This document shows positions 6,818-19,277 of a stretch of DNA of 20,747 nt, piece after piece. This DNA comes from a virus (lineage: Duplodnaviria; Heunggongvirae; Uroviricota; Caudoviricetes), in the IMG/VR virus record IMGVR_UViG_2579778622_000016, positions 1 through 20,747 of that record, one strand, 5' to 3'. Both the position numbers and the translations under genes were made by a program. The notes beneath the pieces were generated by a model that was not told the DNA's origin, did no database searches, and saw only the letters and a program-made list of their open reading frames with translations. Positions within the stretch are counted from its first letter, which is position 1. Each line of letters begins with the position of its first letter.

Positions 6818-6967
6818 AGTCTTATGTCCTTGCTGATTTGTTCAGATTGCCCTGTGTTCAGCAGGGCGGTCGGGTACTTGAACACCGCAGCAAGCCGGCC
6901 CGTATCCTTAGCCTTGCGGCTGTTTTTCGGTATACGCGCTACCCGACCATATCTGAAAAATGGACAT

Positions 6968-7061: not shown

Positions 7062-9125
7062 TCAATCTTTCCGGTATCTGTAAGATTCGAATCCTCCGGC
7101 GTTTAGTGGAATGCTCGTGGCCCAGTCAGGAACGGTTGCCAGTAACTGGCTGAGATGTTCTGCTGAGTAATCGGGTGAGTCAGGGGCCTCACTTATAATT
7201 TCATCGTGTACCGTCAGCACAATGCTGTAACCGGCATCTTCGATAAGCGGCATGTTTCCGGCCAGAACGTCGCGGGCGGCCGCCTGGGTGACGTTCTCTA
7301 CCAGCTTTCCGCCGTAGGTTTTGAGTCGTTGCCATTTACGCGAATAAGAGTTAACACCCATATAGGTGATATCCCCTTTTTCGATAACCGGAGACGGGTA
7401 GCATACAGCGCGTCCAGATGGCAGCTGTATGCGCAGCCACGCGCCATCACGTTGAATTTTAAGATAGCCGCAATACAATGTTTTTTGCGGTGTGGCGATT
7501 GCTGTGCGGACAGTGCGCTCCAGCTCGTACCAGAAATCGCAGGTAGCCGGGTGCGCCCTGCGCCACAGGCGCTTGAGCGAGTCACATGCGATGAATACAC
7601 GCTCGGACAGGCCAAAGGTCGACTTACGTTTAACCGATTCGTCGTACCAGCTTTTCGCCTCGCGGATAACATCGCGGGGAATGTTTGGCAGTGCGGCGTT
7701 CGCCAGCTCGTCGAGATCGAGACCGTAAACCAGAGCAAAAGTGATGAAAGCCGATACACCACCTCCATAACCCAGACCGAGTTCCATGACTTTACCGATC
7801 TGACGCATGTGTTTATCAACATCATCTGGTGCAATATCGAAAGCTTTTGCATACGCCAGTTTATATAAGTCCGGACCCGTTCCGGCGTCGTACTCTCTGA
7901 ATGCATTCAGTTTCCATTCCTCTCCCGCCAGCCATGCCAGCATACGGCCTTCAATGTTTGACAAGTCACTTACCACCAGTTTTTTGCCTGTTGGCGCGAT
8001 AATGCAGCCACGTAACGCTGAACTGGTTAGTTCCATGATATTGTCAAACAGCAGGTCTGCACATCCGGCTTTCAGTGCTTCGATGCCTTCGTCTATTTGT
8101 TCCTGTTTTAGTGAAGGGCGGGGAAGGTTCTGGGGCTGGAATAGCCGTCCGGCCCAACGACCGGTACGTGACGCCCCGCAGAACTGTAGCGTACCGCGTA
8201 AGCGCCCGTCGTGGCTTACGCCTTTCATTAGTGCCTTGTATTTACTGGTGCTGGTAGTACTGGCCTGCAGGCGGATAGCCAGCAGTTCTTTCACGGCAGA
8301 TGGTAAATTGGGGTCGGCAATACGACGTTCCAGAGTACTGCGTTGCATGTGTGGTAGCTCCACACCGTAGGATTCAACAATGTGCTTAATCAACGCGTCT
8401 CGTTGTGTGGCTGCCTGCACTTCGCCATCAGTCATTTCCTGTGTACGCTTTGCCAGGCGCTTTTGCTCCTGGTCTACCGCTTCGATCGCAGCGCGCGCGA
8501 GTTGCATGTCCATGCAGACGCCCCGGTCGTTGATCTGCTGATCACGATGCCAGAGCGCCAGCTCTGTCCCCTGATAATTCCACTTCGGCAGACGTTTATA
8601 GACTTCGCGCATTGCCTCGATATCCAGTCCGGCGTAAGCAACAAAGCGCCGCCATTCTTCCGGGTGGGTTTTGCTGGTGGCACGGCGCAGTTTGCTATTT
8701 TTCGGACGTGGCTTACAGAACAGCTGGATCAGCGCCTTACCTTCTTTGTCCTTCGCTTTGTCTTGCGGGACGCCTAGTACTTCGCAGAGTTCCCCCAGAG
8801 ACCCCGGGAGACCGTGCGCCAGCGCCTGCACCATCGTGTCGCGCCAACGTTCGACTGGCGGTGCCAGTCGCGGCATTGCATAACGCAGAACGGTGCGGTC
8901 GAAGTGAGAGTTATGGAAATAAAGCAGGGTTTCAGGGTCTGCGATTGCTTCGTATAAGCCGTGTGGAATACCACCACCGGCAGTGATATCCCACACGTTT
9001 ACTGGCCCGTCGTTGATAGCCCATGCGAAAAGCATCACTTCAACGCCTTCGGCATACGCATGGGTACCGTTGTTGATCGGAATGTCACAATAGGTTTCCA
9101 GGTCGCCCCATAGTATATTGGACAT
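7062..9125 (-). CDS. Family-A DNA polymerase with 3'-5' exonuclease domain
   Basis: 687 aa; Exo I GDLETY, motif [13 protein letters not shown], motif [13 protein letters not shown], motif C VHDE. SD GAGGA 6 nt upstream. Confidence 0.9.
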
Positions 9126-15093: not shown

Positions 15094-17238
15094 ATGGCCC
15101 AGATCAATCTCTCATACGGCCGGGAACTGGTAGACAACCTTCCTGTGCCCTGTACTGATGCCGATTTTAACCGGACATTTAAGCGTGTTAAAAAGTGGGC
15201 TCGTGCTATCGGCGCAACCAAACAGGATACAAAAAGCCAGCTTAACGCCAAAAAAGCGCGTCTGCCCTACATCTGGCACGCAATGAAGGACGTCACCAAA
15301 GGTCGTAACGCTGCTAATGCGGGCAACCGTGATGTGCTCTTCATGGATATGGACGGCTGTAACGCGCCTGCATGGGGCGCTTTACGCGATGCGCTGGCCT
15401 GTTTCTCATGTTTCACCTATTCAACGCCAAGTCATCTGCACCCCACTGCAAACGGGGAACATCGCTGGCGTATCTGCCTGGAGCTGAGTCGCCAGGTCAC
15501 GCCCGAAGAGTACAAGCGTCTTGGCCTTGCGGTTGAAAACTGGCTGATGGATTGTATCAGCCTGCTGGACGATTACACCGTCAAGTGGGACCACAGCGTT
15601 TACAACCCGGACCATATGGTTTTTGCCCCTGATGAAAAGGCCATCTTTGAACGTTTTACCGGGGAACCTGTTGACGTTGATATCCTGTTGGCCAGCGCAC
15701 CGGAAGTTACCATCCCTGAAAAAGCATCTTCCACAGACCGCGATGATTTGTCACGCGCTGTCGAACTGAACGGCATCAGTCAGGAAACTTTTGACGACCT
15801 GCGCGAAGTGATGTGGCATCCGGCTGTACTGGCGGACGCTGAGCCGGGTTGCGGTAAATACCATAGCTGGGCGGCGATGGGAAATCGTCTGGCATGGTTT
15901 AAGGGAACCGACTGGGAAGACGCAGCCCGTCAGCTTTGGGTCGACTGGTCGATAGCGGGTGGTGGCGATGGCATCAGCGCTGAACATAAATGGGACAGTA
16001 ACCAGCTTACCGCCGAACGAACCGGTTACCAGGCCATTTTCGCCCATGCGCAGAAAGCAGGGGTCGCTAACCCCGCGACCGACCGTATGCGCGGTTTTGT
16101 CGCCGGTGCGAATGACTTCGACGAGTTGCCACCGGAAAAACCGGAGCTGCCAAAGTCCAGACCGCACACAGGCGGCTACGGTAAGCCGGGAAAGTTCATC
16201 ATTGAAGGGATGGTGCCGCACGGGGTGACCATGCTCTATGGAGCTTCGTCATCGTTCAAATCCTATGGCGTTATCTCCATGCTCTGCCGTGTGGCGACGA
16301 AAACTCATCGCTGGGGCGGGCGTAACCTCAAAGGTGGCGCTGTTCTGTATGTTGCCGCTGAGGGTGGCAGCTCCGTTATGCCGCGTGTCGGCGCATGGGC
16401 GGATAAGTACAATGACGGTAAGCCACTGGATTTGTTCTACACCCTGCCACTGGCGGTTGATCTCTCTGTCCCCGCAAACGTCACAAAGATGGTAAACGAG
16501 ATTAAGCGCATAGCGTACCACACCGGCGAACCTGTCCGGCTTGTGGCCGTCGACACGCTGTCGCAGTCCATGATGCAGGGCGAGGAAAACAGCGCCAGTG
16601 ATGTGGCAAAATTCATGGCGGGCGCAACCAGGGTGTTCACCGAAACGGGCGCAGCGGTGATTATCGTTCACCACAGCGGCAAAGACAGCAGTAAGGGGAT
16701 GCGTGGCTCTTCTGCTGCCTTTGCTAACGCCGATGCGGTCATTCGCGTGGAACGCATCGGCGACGCGGTGAACCTGATTAACGAGAAACAGCGTACCGGT
16801 CCGGTACAGCCGACCCGCGGTTACATGGTACCGACAGTGCAGCTTCCTGACGACGTTATCGCGGCTAACGAAACGTACGATGATGAGTATACCAGCACTG
16901 AAGGGGAAGTATATGACCCTGTAAGGCTTACCACCGAGCGCGTGTTTGAAGATGCACCAATGGCGGAGATCACCCCACTGCTGGTGGATAAGGGCGACGG
17001 GAATACCAAAGGCAGCAGCGATGAATCCTGGGTATGGGAAAAGCTGGAGGCCTCCGGCGGCAGCATCAACCGTTCTGCGCTTCGCGAGTTATGGAAGGAT
17101 GAAACCGATAAAAGTACCGGTCAGTTACGTGCGGTTCTGGGGCGCATGAAAGAGAAGTATTACATCGTTGAGCGCGACGGCGTAATCAGGGATCCGCTAT
17201 GCAATGGCGTACCACCTGGAGGGGATGAAATTGCTTAA
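15094..17238 (+). CDS. Replication protein: N-terminal AEP primase-polymerase domain fused to a RecA-fold (AAA_25/RepA-like) helicase/ATPase
   Basis: 714 aa; AEP motifs VLFMDMDG (DxD) and TPSHLHP (SxH); C-terminal P-loop region GASSSFKS, Walker-B-like LVAVDTL and VIIVHHSGKD. Confidence 0.75.
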   Translation: MAQINLSYGRELVDNLPVPCTDADFNRTFKRVKKWARAIGATKQDTKSQLNAKKARLPYIWHAMKDVTKGRNAANAGNRDVLFMDMDGCNAPAWGALRDALACFSCFTYSTPSHLHPTANGEHRWRICLELSRQVTPEEYKRLGLAVENWLMDCISLLDDYTVKWDHSVYNPDHMVFAPDEKAIFERFTGEPVDVDILLASAPEVTIPEKASSTDRDDLSRAVELNGISQETFDDLREVMWHPAVLADAEPGCGKYHSWAAMGNRLAWFKGTDWEDAARQLWVDWSIAGGGDGISAEHKWDSNQLTAERTGYQAIFAHAQKAGVANPATDRMRGFVAGANDFDELPPEKPELPKSRPHTGGYGKPGKFIIEGMVPHGVTMLYGASSSFKSYGVISMLCRVATKTHRWGGRNLKGGAVLYVAAEGGSSVMPRVGAWADKYNDGKPLDLFYTLPLAVDLSVPANVTKMVNEIKRIAYHTGEPVRLVAVDTLSQSMMQGEENSASDVAKFMAGATRVFTETGAAVIIVHHSGKDSSKGMRGSSAAFANADAVIRVERIGDAVNLINEKQRTGPVQPTRGYMVPTVQLPDDVIAANETYDDEYTSTEGEVYDPVRLTTERVFEDAPMAEITPLLVDKGDGNTKGSSDESWVWEKLEASGGSINRSALRELWKDETDKSTGQLRAVLGRMKEKYYIVERDGVIRDPLCNGVPPGGDEIA

Positions 17239-17244
17239 TTTTAC

Positions 17245-17535
17245 CAATTTGCAGAAAGCTACAAATTTGCATAAAAATGCAAAAATAAAATATATGCAAT
17301 TTATTTGCATAAATAGTCAGCGCAACAAAAATTTTAAGCAGCAAGCGCAACACGATGCGCAACAGCGCAACAAAAAATGTTGCGCCGCTGATTTTAAAGG
17401 CTTTTTTAACCGCAACAAGCGCAACACGACGGCTAGCGTAGTGGCGCAACACAATACCCCTCTCCCCCCTTTAGGGGGGAGGGGTTTGTTGCGCCCGAGC
17501 CGTTGCGGTTTTTATTCATTTAAATGCATATGCAA
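17245..17535. repeat. Iteron-rich putative replication origin
   Basis: GCGCAACA at 17320, 17345, 17357, 17365, 17419, 17444 and inverted TGTTGCGC at 17378, 17487 (variants at 17410, 17501); AT-rich TTTGCAT / ATGCAAA repeats at 17246-17315; central GC hairpin 17457-17484. Confidence 0.55.
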
Positions 17536-17561
17536 TGCTGGTGAATGATAAGGGGGTGCAG

Positions 17562-18260
17562 ATGCTGACAGCAATCAACAACGAAAAAATTGTCATCGCA
17601 AGGGACGCGCAGAAACCGGGAATTTTCGCCTGCCCGGAATGTGGTGAAGTTGTCACCCTGCGGAAAGGTTCGGTGAAAGTTCACCATTTCGCCCATCGCA
17701 GCACCACATCCTGCGGTTACGGGAAAGGCGAATCTGAGTTGCACATGGATTTGAAAATGCAGGTCTATGACGCGTTGAACGCGCATCGTGAGGTGGAATA
17801 TGTTGCGATGGAGGTCGCAGTCGGTGATGTTCGTCCCGATGTGCTGGCGATTATTCGGGGTCAGAAGGTTGCTTTTGAGATTCAGGTTAGTTCGCTGAGT
17901 ATTGAAGACCTCTATCGCCGCACGGTTGCGTACGCAGCTCAGGACATTGCGATGATCTGGATCCTGCACTGGCCTGAAGGTACTGCACTGGACCGGCTTT
18001 ATCACCCTGCATCATGGGAGCGATGGTTACATACTTGCGGAATGGCAACTCTGTACTTCTGGGCGGGCGATGGCTGGGTCAGGCCAGTGCGTCTGGGAAA
18101 CCGACAACATGGATTACAAAGAGCACCTCGTGCCCATCTGGTTGATGATTTCGAACCAAAGCGAACAGGCGGGTGGATTAAAGGTGATTTTCTGATACCT
18201 GCTCGCTTTATCTGGAATCGTGTGCGACGGCAAAAACGTAGAGGTCAGAGCTATGCGTAA
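17562..18260 (+). CDS. CoiA-like family protein (putative nuclease)
   Basis: FACPECGEVVTLRKGSVKVHHFAHRSTTSC...GESELH...RPDV matches the CoiA N-terminal pattern as I recall it. SD AAGGGGG before the ATG at 17562. Confidence 0.75.
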   Translation: MLTAINNEKIVIARDAQKPGIFACPECGEVVTLRKGSVKVHHFAHRSTTSCGYGKGESELHMDLKMQVYDALNAHREVEYVAMEVAVGDVRPDVLAIIRGQKVAFEIQVSSLSIEDLYRRTVAYAAQDIAMIWILHWPEGTALDRLYHPASWERWLHTCGMATLYFWAGDGWVRPVRLGNRQHGLQRAPRAHLVDDFEPKRTGGWIKGDFLIPARFIWNRVRRQKRRGQSYA

Positions 18261-18687
18261 TATTCAACAGGTTTTAGAGCGCTGGGGTGGCTGGGCTGCC
18301 AATAGCAACACCACAGTGAGCTGGGCTCCAATAGCGGCGGGATTTAAAGGGCTGGTAGTCAGCAGCCTGCCTGGCAGGCTGAGTTGCTGCGACGACGATG
18401 GCCTGATTATCGATGCTTGCGTCTGTCGGCTGCAGCAGGTCCGTAAGCCTGAGGAACTGGACGTCATTATGCTGTACTACGTCTACGGGTTAAGCAAACG
18501 TGAGATAGGACGGCGGCGTCGATGTTCTGAAGGATTTATCCGCCAGCAGTTGCAGGTAGCTGAGGGATTCATTGAGGGGTGTCTCTGCATGCTGGGTGTG
18601 AGCCTTCAGATGGATCCTGAGGTCGAAATTCAAAGGGATGAAAAAAGTATTAGTGCGCTACGCAAAAACTGCGCTACGCTGGTATGA
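18253..18687 (+). CDS. Phage antitermination protein Q (phage-82/21-type Q family)
   Basis: MRNIQQVLERWGGWAANS...CCDDD...YYVYG resembles remembered Q-family proteins. ATG at 18253 overlaps the CoiA-like stop; followed by a long non-coding spacer and the holin gene. Confidence 0.7.
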   Translation: MRNIQQVLERWGGWAANSNTTVSWAPIAAGFKGLVVSSLPGRLSCCDDDGLIIDACVCRLQQVRKPEELDVIMLYYVYGLSKREIGRRRRCSEGFIRQQLQVAEGFIEGCLCMLGVSLQMDPEVEIQRDEKSISALRKNCATLV

Positions 18688-18895
18688 GTTGAATTTCTGA
18701 CCTCAACGAAGAGCTCCAAATTATTGGGGGTTTTTTGTACGCACAACAGGTAATAGTATTGAACCCGCAGACCTCGCGGAACTGGTGAAAGGTGCCGCGC
18801 AGTGCTCTTATCGTTGTGGTGAAGCTCAATGGCGAGCTAGCAGATAGGCGACAGTGAAAATACTAGTCATGTATCTGACCGCCGCGCGTACTGCA

Positions 18896-18944
18896 ATCGG
18901 CAGCGCACCGATGGAAGCCGGTTCGATTCCGGCCGCCACAACCC
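18896..18944 (+). other. tRNA-like fragment (anticodon-arm-like hairpin, canonical T-arm, 7-nt acceptor 3' strand); not a complete canonical tRNA
   Basis: ATCGG-CAGCGCA-CCGAT hairpin (18896-18912), T-arm GCCGG-TTCGATT-CCGGC (18917-18933), then CGCCACA-A-CCC. No D-arm or acceptor 5' strand at the right distance. Confidence 0.3.
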
Positions 18945-19061
18945 AAACTGAGCCGTAGCCACTGGCTGTCCTGAACTCCTCAGTGATAGTTACGCTGCGG
19001 CCTTCTTTTTCCCCTTCCTAATACAAGAACTACGCAATCCGTTACTGGCGGAGGCGTTGCT

Positions 19062-19277
19062 ATGAAATCAATGGACAAAATCTCAACTGGCATTGCCTAC
19101 GGAACATCCGCTGGTAGTGCGGGATACTGGTTTTTACAGTGGTTGGATCAGGTCAGTCCGTCACAGTGGGCTGCTATTGGTGTGCTGGGGAGTCTGGCAC
19201 TGGGCTTTCTGACTTATCTGACGAATCTGTACTTCAAGATAAAAGAGGACCGTCGCAAGGCGGCGCGGGGAGAGTAA
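19062..19277 (+). CDS. S21-type pinholin (class II holin) with dual-start motif
   Basis: 71 aa, [30 protein letters not shown]...: near-identical to my memory of phage 21 S; two in-frame starts (MKSM / MDKI); SD GGAGG upstream; two TM segments. Confidence 0.85.

Follow-up and report, generated by a model that had tools for sequence, protein, structure and literature searches.

Non-decoding tRNA mimics, exemplified by the tRNA-like domain of transfer-messenger RNA (tmRNA), by YrlA and by the tRNA-like structures of plant viruses, present an acceptor/T-stem stack and an elbow between the D and T loops as a handle for host tRNA enzymes. Small RNAs of bacteriophages, such as the C4 antisense RNA of P1 and P7 and the CI RNA of P4, are cut from leader transcripts by tRNA-processing enzymes and consist of a terminal stem with variable specificity loops. 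The present analysis concerns a 20,747-nucleotide (nt) stretch of DNA from a virus of the class Caudoviricetes (IMG/VR record IMGVR_UViG_2579778622_000016, positions 1 to 20,747; hereafter the window) and, within it, a tRNA-like element at 18813-18942, located between the antiterminator Q gene and the holin gene. Its body is a tRNA-Arg-type cloverleaf carrying a 57-nt branch between tRNA nucleotides 26 and 27, and the element appears to be a tRNA-mimic RNA, one cargo of a modular leader-RNA system that bacteriophage lambda shares.

A prediction made earlier from the sequence alone (the original prediction) had noticed a tRNA-like fragment here and had considered a decayed tRNA, an insertion-disrupted tRNA, a tRNA-derived recombination site and a structured RNA. 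The position that it gave is borne out by Pfam, with a PF06530 Q open reading frame (ORF) upstream and a phage-21-type holin ORF downstream. The T arm, the D-arm-like hairpin and a hairpin whose loop CAGCGCA lacks U33 (A33 takes its place) lie exactly where they had been described (Table 1), as do the 3′ acceptor strand CGCCACA (18934-18940), followed by A and CCCA, and its 5′ partner TGTGGTG (18815-18821), although the acceptor-like stem comprises nine base pairs (bp) rather than seven. The two strands had been judged too far apart; their spacing is indeed not that of a normal tRNA, yet the fold pairs them around four internal arms. The element is also larger than originally described in that an upstream helix (18749-18761 with 18800-18812) is part of the structured unit.

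Structure of the tRNA-like element

As had been anticipated, no canonical tRNA fold is detectable. ARAGORN reports 0 tRNA and 0 tmRNA genes in the whole window, and the Rfam tRNA model RF00005 gives no match in it, neither at the gathering threshold nor at E ≤ 10. The sole Rfam signal at the element, obtained in a permissive search, is a local match of the 17-nt T arm to tmRNA (RF00023; 10.2 bits versus a gathering threshold of 47). Lack of a hit to the tRNA and tmRNA models had been proposed as an argument against the element; such a test is of little value here, as Rfam 15 contains no model of the family. Folding of the single sequence yields an acceptor stem closed around the D arm, the T arm and two further arms (z = −3.0, none of 200 shuffles being as good), which, together with covariation, vindicates the structured-RNA option.

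Alignment with related phages, suggested earlier as a check, recovered a conserved family with a covarying structure. The structure was derived from a seven-sequence alignment and tested on a 35-sequence MAFFT alignment and, in a second test, on 51 sequences aligned to a covariance model (R1) built from the structure, with pairs counted on 49 distinct sequences. In the latter, standard pairs occupy 92.8% of cells, and both partners have changed in 26 of the 41 pairs. None of 500 shuffles reaches the observed pairing and covariation values, and sliding the 3′ partners by one to three columns leaves only 33–46% of cells paired. Two-sided compensation is found in all helices but the D stem. Many variant pairs are G-U on the plus strand, which would be A-C mismatches on the opposite strand; the plus-strand RNA is therefore the selected molecule.

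The terminal stem must be longer than the 7 bp of a tRNA acceptor stem because pairs 8 and 9 covary (UA/GC/AU at 8; GC/AU at 9). The D loop AAUGGC keeps G18 and G19, and an invariant AA on the 5′ side of the D arm replaces U8-N9 in all aligned members. The hairpin in the position of the anticodon arm (the Arg-like hairpin) is compensated as AUCAG/CUGAU, AUUGG/CCAAU and AUAGG/CCUAU, and its loop reads C/U-A-G/U-C-G-C-A in almost all members, L256 being the exception with A at the first position; A33 and C37 do not vary within the family, which also retains C35 and G36. The GGAA preceding the T arm (18913-18916) is invariant or nearly so. Since U33, a purine at 37 and U8 are near-universal in tRNAs, the fixation of A33, C37 and A8 implies that the element does not decode. 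Only in the late-leader subgroup is the stem followed by an encoded CCA, which is not a family feature, since the other subgroups end in ACT, ACC or CAT.

In-silico deletion of 18839-18895 causes ARAGORN, at default settings, to call a 75-nt tRNA-Arg(GCG). The notion of an insertion-disrupted tRNA is thus apt as anatomy and fails as biology, the 57-nt insert being itself conserved. Within this extra arm, the minimum free energy (MFE) pairing CAGAUA/UAUCUG of the long hairpin was rejected, as it is broken in HK75 and most relatives (UAGCUG); the covarying register is GGCG.CAGU/(G)CUG..CGCC. A pseudoknot between the joiner GCGCGUA and the loop CAGCGCA (GCGC with GCGC) shows no covariation, the few variants (GCGCGCA; CAUCGCA) being uncorrelated. 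An alternative layout, compatible with the secondary structure, is that of a class II tRNA, in which a variable arm of 3–7 bp abuts the T stem: helix P and the long hairpin would form an overlong anticodon arm and ATCGG...CCGAT the variable arm. In place of an anticodon loop this leaves a 10-nt internal loop and a 37-nt hairpin, and 4 nt separate the variable arm from the T stem.

The apical loop of the extra arm displays a hexamer that occurs in seven versions (ACUAGU, UCUAGA, UCGCGA, GCUAGC, ACCGGU, UCCGGA and UCUGGA), every one self-complementary; UCUGGA is so through G-U only, that is, only as RNA. A hexamer without a loop of its own cannot pair within one molecule, and a kissing contact between two copies is therefore the simplest reading; its self-complementarity suggests that the RNA may dimerize through this site. 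For the 19-nt apical loop as a whole, no complement was found elsewhere in the window at up to three mismatches, and hence no cis antisense target there.

Relation to known tRNA-like and structured RNAs

Features that the element shares with canonical bacterial and phage tRNAs, above all with the tRNA-Arg genes that lambdoid phages carry downstream of Q, are the acceptor core (7 bp), the GG of the D arm, the T arm with its 5-bp stem and UUCGAUU loop, and an anticodon-type hairpin of 5 bp and 7 nt with C35 and G36; it also occupies the same slot as true phage tRNAs (locus L151). It departs from canonical tRNAs in the 57-nt arm at 26/27, in A33, C37 and A8, in the 9-bp terminal stem and in the unconserved CCA. 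The UUCRANY T loop and the D-loop G18 G19 that form the elbow in tRNA are both present, so that the element, like other non-decoding tRNA mimics, keeps the acceptor/T handle while the "anticodon side" is replaced or elaborated. In contrast to tmRNA (RF00023), pair 3-70 is U-A and not G3-U70, and there are neither a reading frame nor pseudoknots. YrlA is reportedly circularly permuted relative to the element and linked to rsr; the element has no Rfam match of this kind, is phage-borne and resides in leaders. Allo-tRNAs are said to reach a 12-bp acceptor/T branch (8/4 or 9/3) by means of a shorter T stem and to have decoding anticodon loops; the element shares their long acceptor stem (9 bp), but its branch amounts to 9 + 5 = 14 bp. 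From C4 and CI RNAs (RF01695) it differs by its full D and T arms and by the lack of an Rfam C4 match at E ≤ 10. As in the dimerization initiation site of HIV-1, the packaging RNA of phi29 and the ROOL, GOLLD and OLE RNAs, an exposed apical hexamer keeps its self-complementarity through compensation; unlike ROOL and GOLLD, the element is much smaller and tRNA-shaped, and its dimerization is putative.

Distribution and genomic contexts

Labels of the form L001 denote individual family or framework loci (lambda, L143 and L246; HK629, L006; CUS-3, L126; BIS08P22, L005). BLAST against phage genomes places the 143-bp core 18800-18942 in 92 records at 73–99% identity, counting phage records that cover at least 80% of the 151-nt query. 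In E. coli, 236 of 5426 complete genomes contain a match, none being annotated among the matches listed; more than 119 IMG/VR contigs match as well. More than 120 further copies came from scanning IMG/VR, and a set with a single genome for each species, for the pattern; among them are copies in Klebsiella pneumoniae, Enterobacter and Superficieibacter.

The element occupies four slots, namely the Q-S spacer (late leader) of lambdoid phages such as HK75; the stretch immediately preceding gene N in BIS08P22, a P22-like phage; a position in Salmonella Skateviruses (e.g., seszw, Skate, Akira and CECAV_048) that is flanked by tail genes and lies on the strand opposite to them; and a site downstream of nin-type genes (NinB and a recombination nuclease) in the Pantoea phage PdC23. 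One Skatevirus record labels just the 3′ 58 nt of the element as "tRNA-Ser". The Skatevirus unit (L001 2819-3270, Salmonella phage vB_CECAV_048) spans about 400 nt as a transcription unit of its own, runs antisense to tail genes and comprises a TTGACA-17-TAGATT promoter, a hairpin of the lambda type termed P0 (see below), the element, a covarying 13-bp hairpin (CTTAACATCCAGC...GCTGGATGTTAAG) and a terminator; no convincing ORF was found in it. In Klebsiella/Enterobacter-type (L015-type) prophages the order is Q, an HNH/AP2 endonuclease gene, a terminator, P0, the element, a strong terminator 12 nt further on and the lysis genes. Because of this terminator, nothing downstream would be on the same RNA without antitermination. 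The layouts of the Skatevirus, the L015-type prophages and the window look like those of an RNA gene more than of a leader alone.

Genome-reduced mutants of seszw (MZ375295-MZ375354, OL9647xx), down to 36 kb, all keep the element in their deposited form, a few with one extra point change. As the reduction was aimed at annotated ORFs only (PMC9825161), this retention is no evidence of essentiality.

A framework shared with bacteriophage lambda

In the window, P0 has a variable 38-nt loop and directly abuts the terminal stem. Relatives carry at least five compensated versions of it, e.g., GGAAATCGCTTTG/CAAAGCGATCCCC and AGGTAATGGCACT/AGTGCCATTACCT. The flank CAGTGCTCTTATCG (18800-18813) resembles a boxA (TGCTCTTT); this candidate was dismissed, the flank being the 3′ strand of P0 that covaries with 18749-18761. 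The same arrangement exists in lambda right after the terminator tR′, where CACAAC is followed by P0 (AGGTAAGAGCATTG...CAGTGCTCTTTCC), by a closing stem (GTTGTGCTG - 67 nt - CAGCACAAC) and by CCAAACTGAGCCGTAGCCACTG. The lambda closing stem is a compensated 9-bp helix (GUG to CUG with CAC to CAG) around a 67-nt interior unrelated to that of the window. This copy (L143 985-1150, corresponding to about 44787-44950) lies in a spacer where the lambda record has no feature downstream of orf-64 (44621-44815).

A motif scan for P0 returned 124 distinct loci. In 82 of them P0 is followed by a closing stem in which at least 8 of 9 pairs are Watson-Crick, as opposed to 69 of 2480 shuffles; the statistic counts Watson-Crick pairs only, since with G-U allowed it becomes uninformative, shuffles scoring nearly as high with a G/U-rich strand. 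These loci enclose about 50 different interiors. In the commonest class other than the tRNA-like element, a hypervariable center of 37–161 nt is flanked by two hairpins, one D-like with loop AGGCUGAU and one T-like with loop AGAUCAGCA. The two hairpin loops are complementary in all nine observed variants, with one double compensation (AGGUCGAU with AGUUCGACA), so that the elbow in this class consists of loop-loop pairing and not of the canonical D/T contact. The HK629 and CUS-3 interiors were considered as members of the tRNA-like family; model R1 does not place them there, and they belong to the complementary-loop class. Further tRNA-like interiors bearing a T loop occur in L198, L236 and L181, and a true tRNA-Arg(UCU) directly follows P0 in at least one locus, L151. 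A search of the element and 20 other framework loci against Rfam gave no cassette match, the only hits being neighboring true tRNAs, int-alpA and isrJ.

HK75, HK629, CUS-3 and the window combine three different interiors with near-identical flanks, which appear in the CUS-3 record as the mosaic boundary sequences bsq4 and bsq3. The cassettes are clearly reshuffled by recombination in these conserved flanks. Tandem units were observed in L009 and L090, where a complementary-loop unit precedes a tRNA-like unit, each with its own flanking stem, and L184 has two P0 motifs. In L198, isrJ (2710-2786 on the minus strand; RF01393, 60 bits) lies directly upstream of a P0 that precedes a different T-loop-bearing cassette; Salmonella IsrJ thus appears to be the short RNA upstream of the framework in this prophage. 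HNH/AP2-type endonuclease genes adjoin the framework in three independent contexts (Table 1), possibly as a result of homing into a conserved RNA gene or its vicinity.

In a second subgroup of the tRNA-like family, the N-leader version, the 5′ flank pairs with the 3′ flank (AGCUUUGG with CCAAAGCU, covarying) and not with P0, giving a terminal stem of about 18 bp with one bulge (z = −5.3). The L008 copy (7880-8045) lies between a lambda-type nutL and the start codon of N, and its outer stem (AGCTTTGGGG.../...CCACCAAAGCT) has the same sequence as the large N-leader hairpin of lambda (GGCUUUGGGGUGUGUG ... CACACACCACCAAAGCU). Elements of the L008 type and the lambda hairpin thus share the enclosing stem (GCTTTGGGGTGTG.../...CACACCACCAAAGC) and the position between nutL and N, whereas the interior in lambda is an unrelated sequence of about 100 nt. 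The N-leader stem (GGCUUUGGGGUGUG... with ...CACACCACCAAAGC) is found in L008-type relatives but not in the window copy, which sits in the late leader and is closed by 9 bp next to P0. The N leader of lambda is reportedly processed by RNase III (Steege et al., 1987; Wilson et al., 2002). We take the large stem to be the cleavage site and cleavage to relieve N autoregulation or otherwise regulate N translation; if this holds, the tRNA-like RNA would be released by RNase III in L008-type phages.

The Q-holin region of the window

The terminator-like hairpin downstream of Q matches in position the tR′ annotated in HK75 and the equivalent hairpin in lambda. The CACAAC between this hairpin and P0 may be a relic of the 3′ strand of a preceding unit or an alternative partner for GTTGTG. 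The hairpin and U-rich tract on the far side of the element are kept in lambda, HK75, HK629 and CUS-3, falling in CUS-3 within the bsq3 boundary sequence, and they are probably a second late-leader terminator closing the RNA unit. In an E. coli chromosomal prophage identical to the locus, the Q-holin spacer is devoid of any annotation, and the Prokaryotic Genome Annotation Pipeline (PGAP) leaves the 375-nt spacer empty in all E. coli matches listed.

Two further observations were made in the window. Directly upstream of Q (15094-18260), genes for a 714-amino-acid AAA_25 ATPase and a CoiA-like nuclease (PF06054/PF25164) replace the usual nin genes. At 6860-6948 on the minus strand there is a full-length Rfam match to sRNA-Xcc1 (RF02221; 71.4 bits versus a gathering threshold of 53, E = 1.7e-11), which is unrelated to the tRNA-like element.

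Table 1. Positions of the tRNA-like element, its parts, its neighbors and related features (window coordinates unless a locus is named)
Feature	Position	Strand	Description
Antiterminator Q gene	18220..18687	+	PF06530 Phage_antitermQ, E = 2.5e-50; PGAP "antiterminator Q family protein" in the identical E. coli locus
Intrinsic terminator-like hairpin and T run, tR′ equivalent	18714..18738	+	Terminator scan; just 5′ of the structured unit
CACAAC	18742..18747	+	Directly 5′ of P0; repeats the end of the 3′ acceptor strand; CACAAC, CGCAAC or CATAAC in P0-type members
Spacer hairpin P0	18749..18812	+	GGTAATAGTATTG (18749-18761) with CAGTGCTCTTATC (18800-18812), 13 bp; MFE fold
Terminal stem, 5′ strand GTTGTGGTG	18813..18821	+	9 bp with 18934-18942; 97.5% of cells paired; 6/9 pairs changed on both sides
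D arm GCTC-AATGGC-GAGC	18824..18837	+	Stem 18824-18827 with 18834-18837; 99.5% paired; one-sided G-U changes only
Extra 57-nt arm	18839..18895	+	Between tRNA nt 26 and 27; helix P, joiners and long hairpin; most strongly covarying part
Helix P of extra arm	18840-18843 with 18891-18894	+	GCAG/CUGC, GGG/CCC, GUGU/ACAC, GCGA/UCGC; 3/5 pairs changed on both sides
Joiners of extra arm	18844-18846 (AUA), 18884-18890 (GCGCGUA)	+	Invariant or nearly so
Long hairpin of extra arm	18847-18855 with 18874-18883	+	10/10 pairs compensated
Apical hexamer ACUAGU of extra arm	18862..18867	+	100% of cells self-complementary; candidate kissing-loop site
Arg-like (anticodon-arm-like) hairpin ATCGG-CAGCGCA-CCGAT	18896..18912	+	Stem 18896-18900 with 18908-18912
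T arm GCCGG-TTCGATT-CCGGC	18917..18933	+	Stem 18917-18921 with 18929-18933; 99.2% paired; 3/5 pairs changed on both sides
Terminal stem, 3′ strand CGCCACAAC	18934..18942	+	Followed by CCA (18943-18945)
Downstream hairpin and U-rich tract	18952..19012	+	GCCGUAGC...GCUGCGGC (18952-19001); fold z = −3.1, 0/200 shuffles as good
Holin gene	19062..19277	+	PF04971, phage 21 holin S, E = 1.1e-35; PGAP "class II holin"
HNH/AP2 gene, HK629	L006 1944-2456		Between Q and P0
HNH/AP2 gene, L015	L015 7614-8099	−	Between Q and P0
HNH/AP2 gene, BIS08P22	L005 3090-3590		Just after N
Complementary-loop class, HK629	L006 2560-2730		Further examples: many of L144-L245
Complementary-loop class, CUS-3	L126 1520-1810		
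Lambda N-leader hairpin	L246 375-512	−	Interior is a second slot for the same cassettes

Possible roles of the element

The reading that we favor for the cassette in the window, holding it at about even confidence, is that 18813-18942 gives rise to a stable, non-decoding mimic derived from tRNA-Arg that is cut out by host processing enzymes and acts in trans. The RNA would form part of a phage leader transcript, which in the window is the late leader between pR′/tR′ and the holin gene. RNase P would cut at the 5′ side of the acceptor stem, the 3′ side would be trimmed by RNase E, RNase BN or exonucleases, and RNase III would release the RNA in relatives in which it lies inside a lambda-type N-leader stem. 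An acceptor-like stem stacked on the T arm and a GG D loop able to form the elbow may have been kept for recognition of shape by host enzymes, with decoding features lost (U33 to A, purine 37 to C, U8 to A) and the 57-nt arm gained at the D/anticodon junction. The invariant Arg-like loop and the joiners might then constitute a binding surface for a host or phage factor that recognizes tRNA(Arg), and the self-complementary apical loop might pair two copies. The released RNA could serve as a decoy or sponge, e.g., for an anticodon nuclease or a synthetase. This is a guess, based on the retained C32, C35, G36 and A38, which presumably match E. coli tRNA-Arg(ICG). What suggests action in trans is that loop and joiners hardly vary, that the hexamer covaries, that Skateviruses have the element as a gene of its own and that it has spread into unrelated phages; in particular, the constraint on joiners, Arg-like loop and hexamer seems to exceed what a cleavage signal would need. 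The terminators that bound the unit in L015-type prophages and probably in the window, and the N-leader stem that encloses it in L008-type phages, point the same way. Several points weigh against it. Processing, stability, dimerization and action in trans are all inferred, and the presence of about 50 unrelated interiors in one framework could mean that nothing but shape counts, read as a processing signal. Its location in temperate phages, invariably in a 5′ leader that N or the lysis genes directly follow, would also fit a role in cis. The encoded CCA is unconserved, and no candidate partner protein was found to co-occur with the element. RNase P, moreover, measures a 12-bp acceptor/T stack, and its cleavage position is uncertain here because the stack amounts to 14 bp.

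The most serious rival, which we consider unlikely but well short of negligible, is a purely cis-acting processing or insulator module, in which the tRNA shape does no more than recruit RNase P, or RNase III via the extended stem. The cut would detach the N or lysis mRNA from the regulatory RNA on its 5′ side, which is either nutL with the N complex or the leader from pR′; it might also leave that mRNA with a structured, stabilizing 5′ end. The excised RNA would be a by-product. Besides the invariable leader position in temperate phages, this explanation draws on the acceptance of some 50 unrelated interiors, of true tRNAs and of the complementary-loop class, which suggests shape and not sequence as the shared need, and on the replacement of the interior of the lambda N-leader hairpin in the N-leader version, an equivalence seen in sequence to which the role of RNase III is added by assumption. 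It does not account for the Skatevirus copy, a separate transcription unit with no convincing downstream ORF, or for the strong terminator 12 nt after the stem in L015-type prophages, and near-invariant joiners, Arg-like loop and covarying hexamer are unneeded for a cleavage signal. That the conservation stems instead from recombination or homing at the DNA level, the element being a mosaic boundary sequence or a homing-endonuclease target, is improbable. The bsq4 and bsq3 annotation of the CUS-3 flanks, the swapping of interiors between near-identical flanks in HK75, HK629, CUS-3 and lambda, and the HNH/AP2 genes adjoining the unit in HK629, L015-type prophages and BIS08P22 agree with it; but compensation is strand-specific with many G-U pairs, UCUGGA is self-complementary only as RNA, and flank recombination explains the swapping of interiors, not the constraint within them. 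Of the earlier suggestion of a tRNA-derived recombination site, at most a side role survives.

Still less credence attaches to a working tRNA-Arg that has an extra arm, or an insert removed after transcription, and supplies CGC/CGU decoding during infection. ARAGORN does call tRNA-Arg(GCG) once the insert is taken out, true tRNAs including tRNA-Arg(UCU) sit in the same slot of related phages, and a CCA follows the window copy. Yet A33, C37 and A8 are fixed, the CCA is unconserved, the native sequence fails both ARAGORN and the Rfam tRNA model, and the insert is under structural selection; to our knowledge, bacteria possess no mechanism for excising a 57-nt insert at position 26/27. Least probable is a functionless tRNA pseudogene, decayed or broken by insertion. 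The failure of tRNA finders and the non-canonical anticodon loop are what such a relic would display. Identity, however, stays at 73–99% across four genomic slots and no fewer than four phage lineages, the insert has two covarying helices and invariant joiners, and compensation extends to all helices but the D stem, the insert included, with slide controls and the independent MAFFT alignment in agreement; the idea of decay put forward originally is therefore not tenable.

Implications for lambdoid phages

No prior description of the element was found in the full-text literature, in which subscription journals are thinly covered, so that an older account in the lambda literature is possible. 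The RNA svsR derives from a different locus, the 3′ end of cI (PMC12803456). The Pas small RNAs, STnc100, AgvB and AsxR (preprint 10.64898/2026.05.13.724894) show no match to the element, and IsrJ likewise represents a different locus and family. The element exposes an annotation gap, having been missed by tRNA finders and Rfam, left unannotated by PGAP and mislabeled as a 58-nt "tRNA-Ser" in one phage record. With respect to RNA structure, it illustrates that a tRNA body tolerates and conserves an entire additional arm where the D and anticodon arms meet, the loop of this arm being seemingly made to pair with itself.

In lambda and its relatives, a single modular RNA system appears to have slots both inside the N-leader hairpin and directly after tR′, between which and within which tRNA mimics, true tRNAs and a wide range of unrelated structured RNAs are swapped; these slots offer a way of testing why lambdoid phages retain tRNA genes and long untranslated leaders at such positions. 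We tentatively entertain, without regarding it as the probable outcome, the broader proposal that lambdoid phages including lambda carry a natural "tRNA scaffold" display system in the early (N) and late leaders, with portable trans-acting cargo. Its chassis would be P0 or an RNase III stem, the 9-bp acceptor-like stem and an elbow made of D/T loops or complementary loops, and would let host tRNA- and rRNA-processing enzymes release the RNA; its cargo would be interchangeable and fast-evolving, that of the window being a dimerizing tRNA-Arg mimic. On this view, spread of the cassette into virulent Salmonella phages and a Pantoea phage implies a portable function in trans, which might be, e.g., the countering of tRNA-directed host defense. 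If this proposal is true, these cassettes would form a large, previously unrecognized class of phage non-coding RNAs in the best-studied phage, and if the Arg-like mimic is a decoy for a tRNA-directed defense or a synthetase, it would represent a new kind of RNA-based phage counter-measure.

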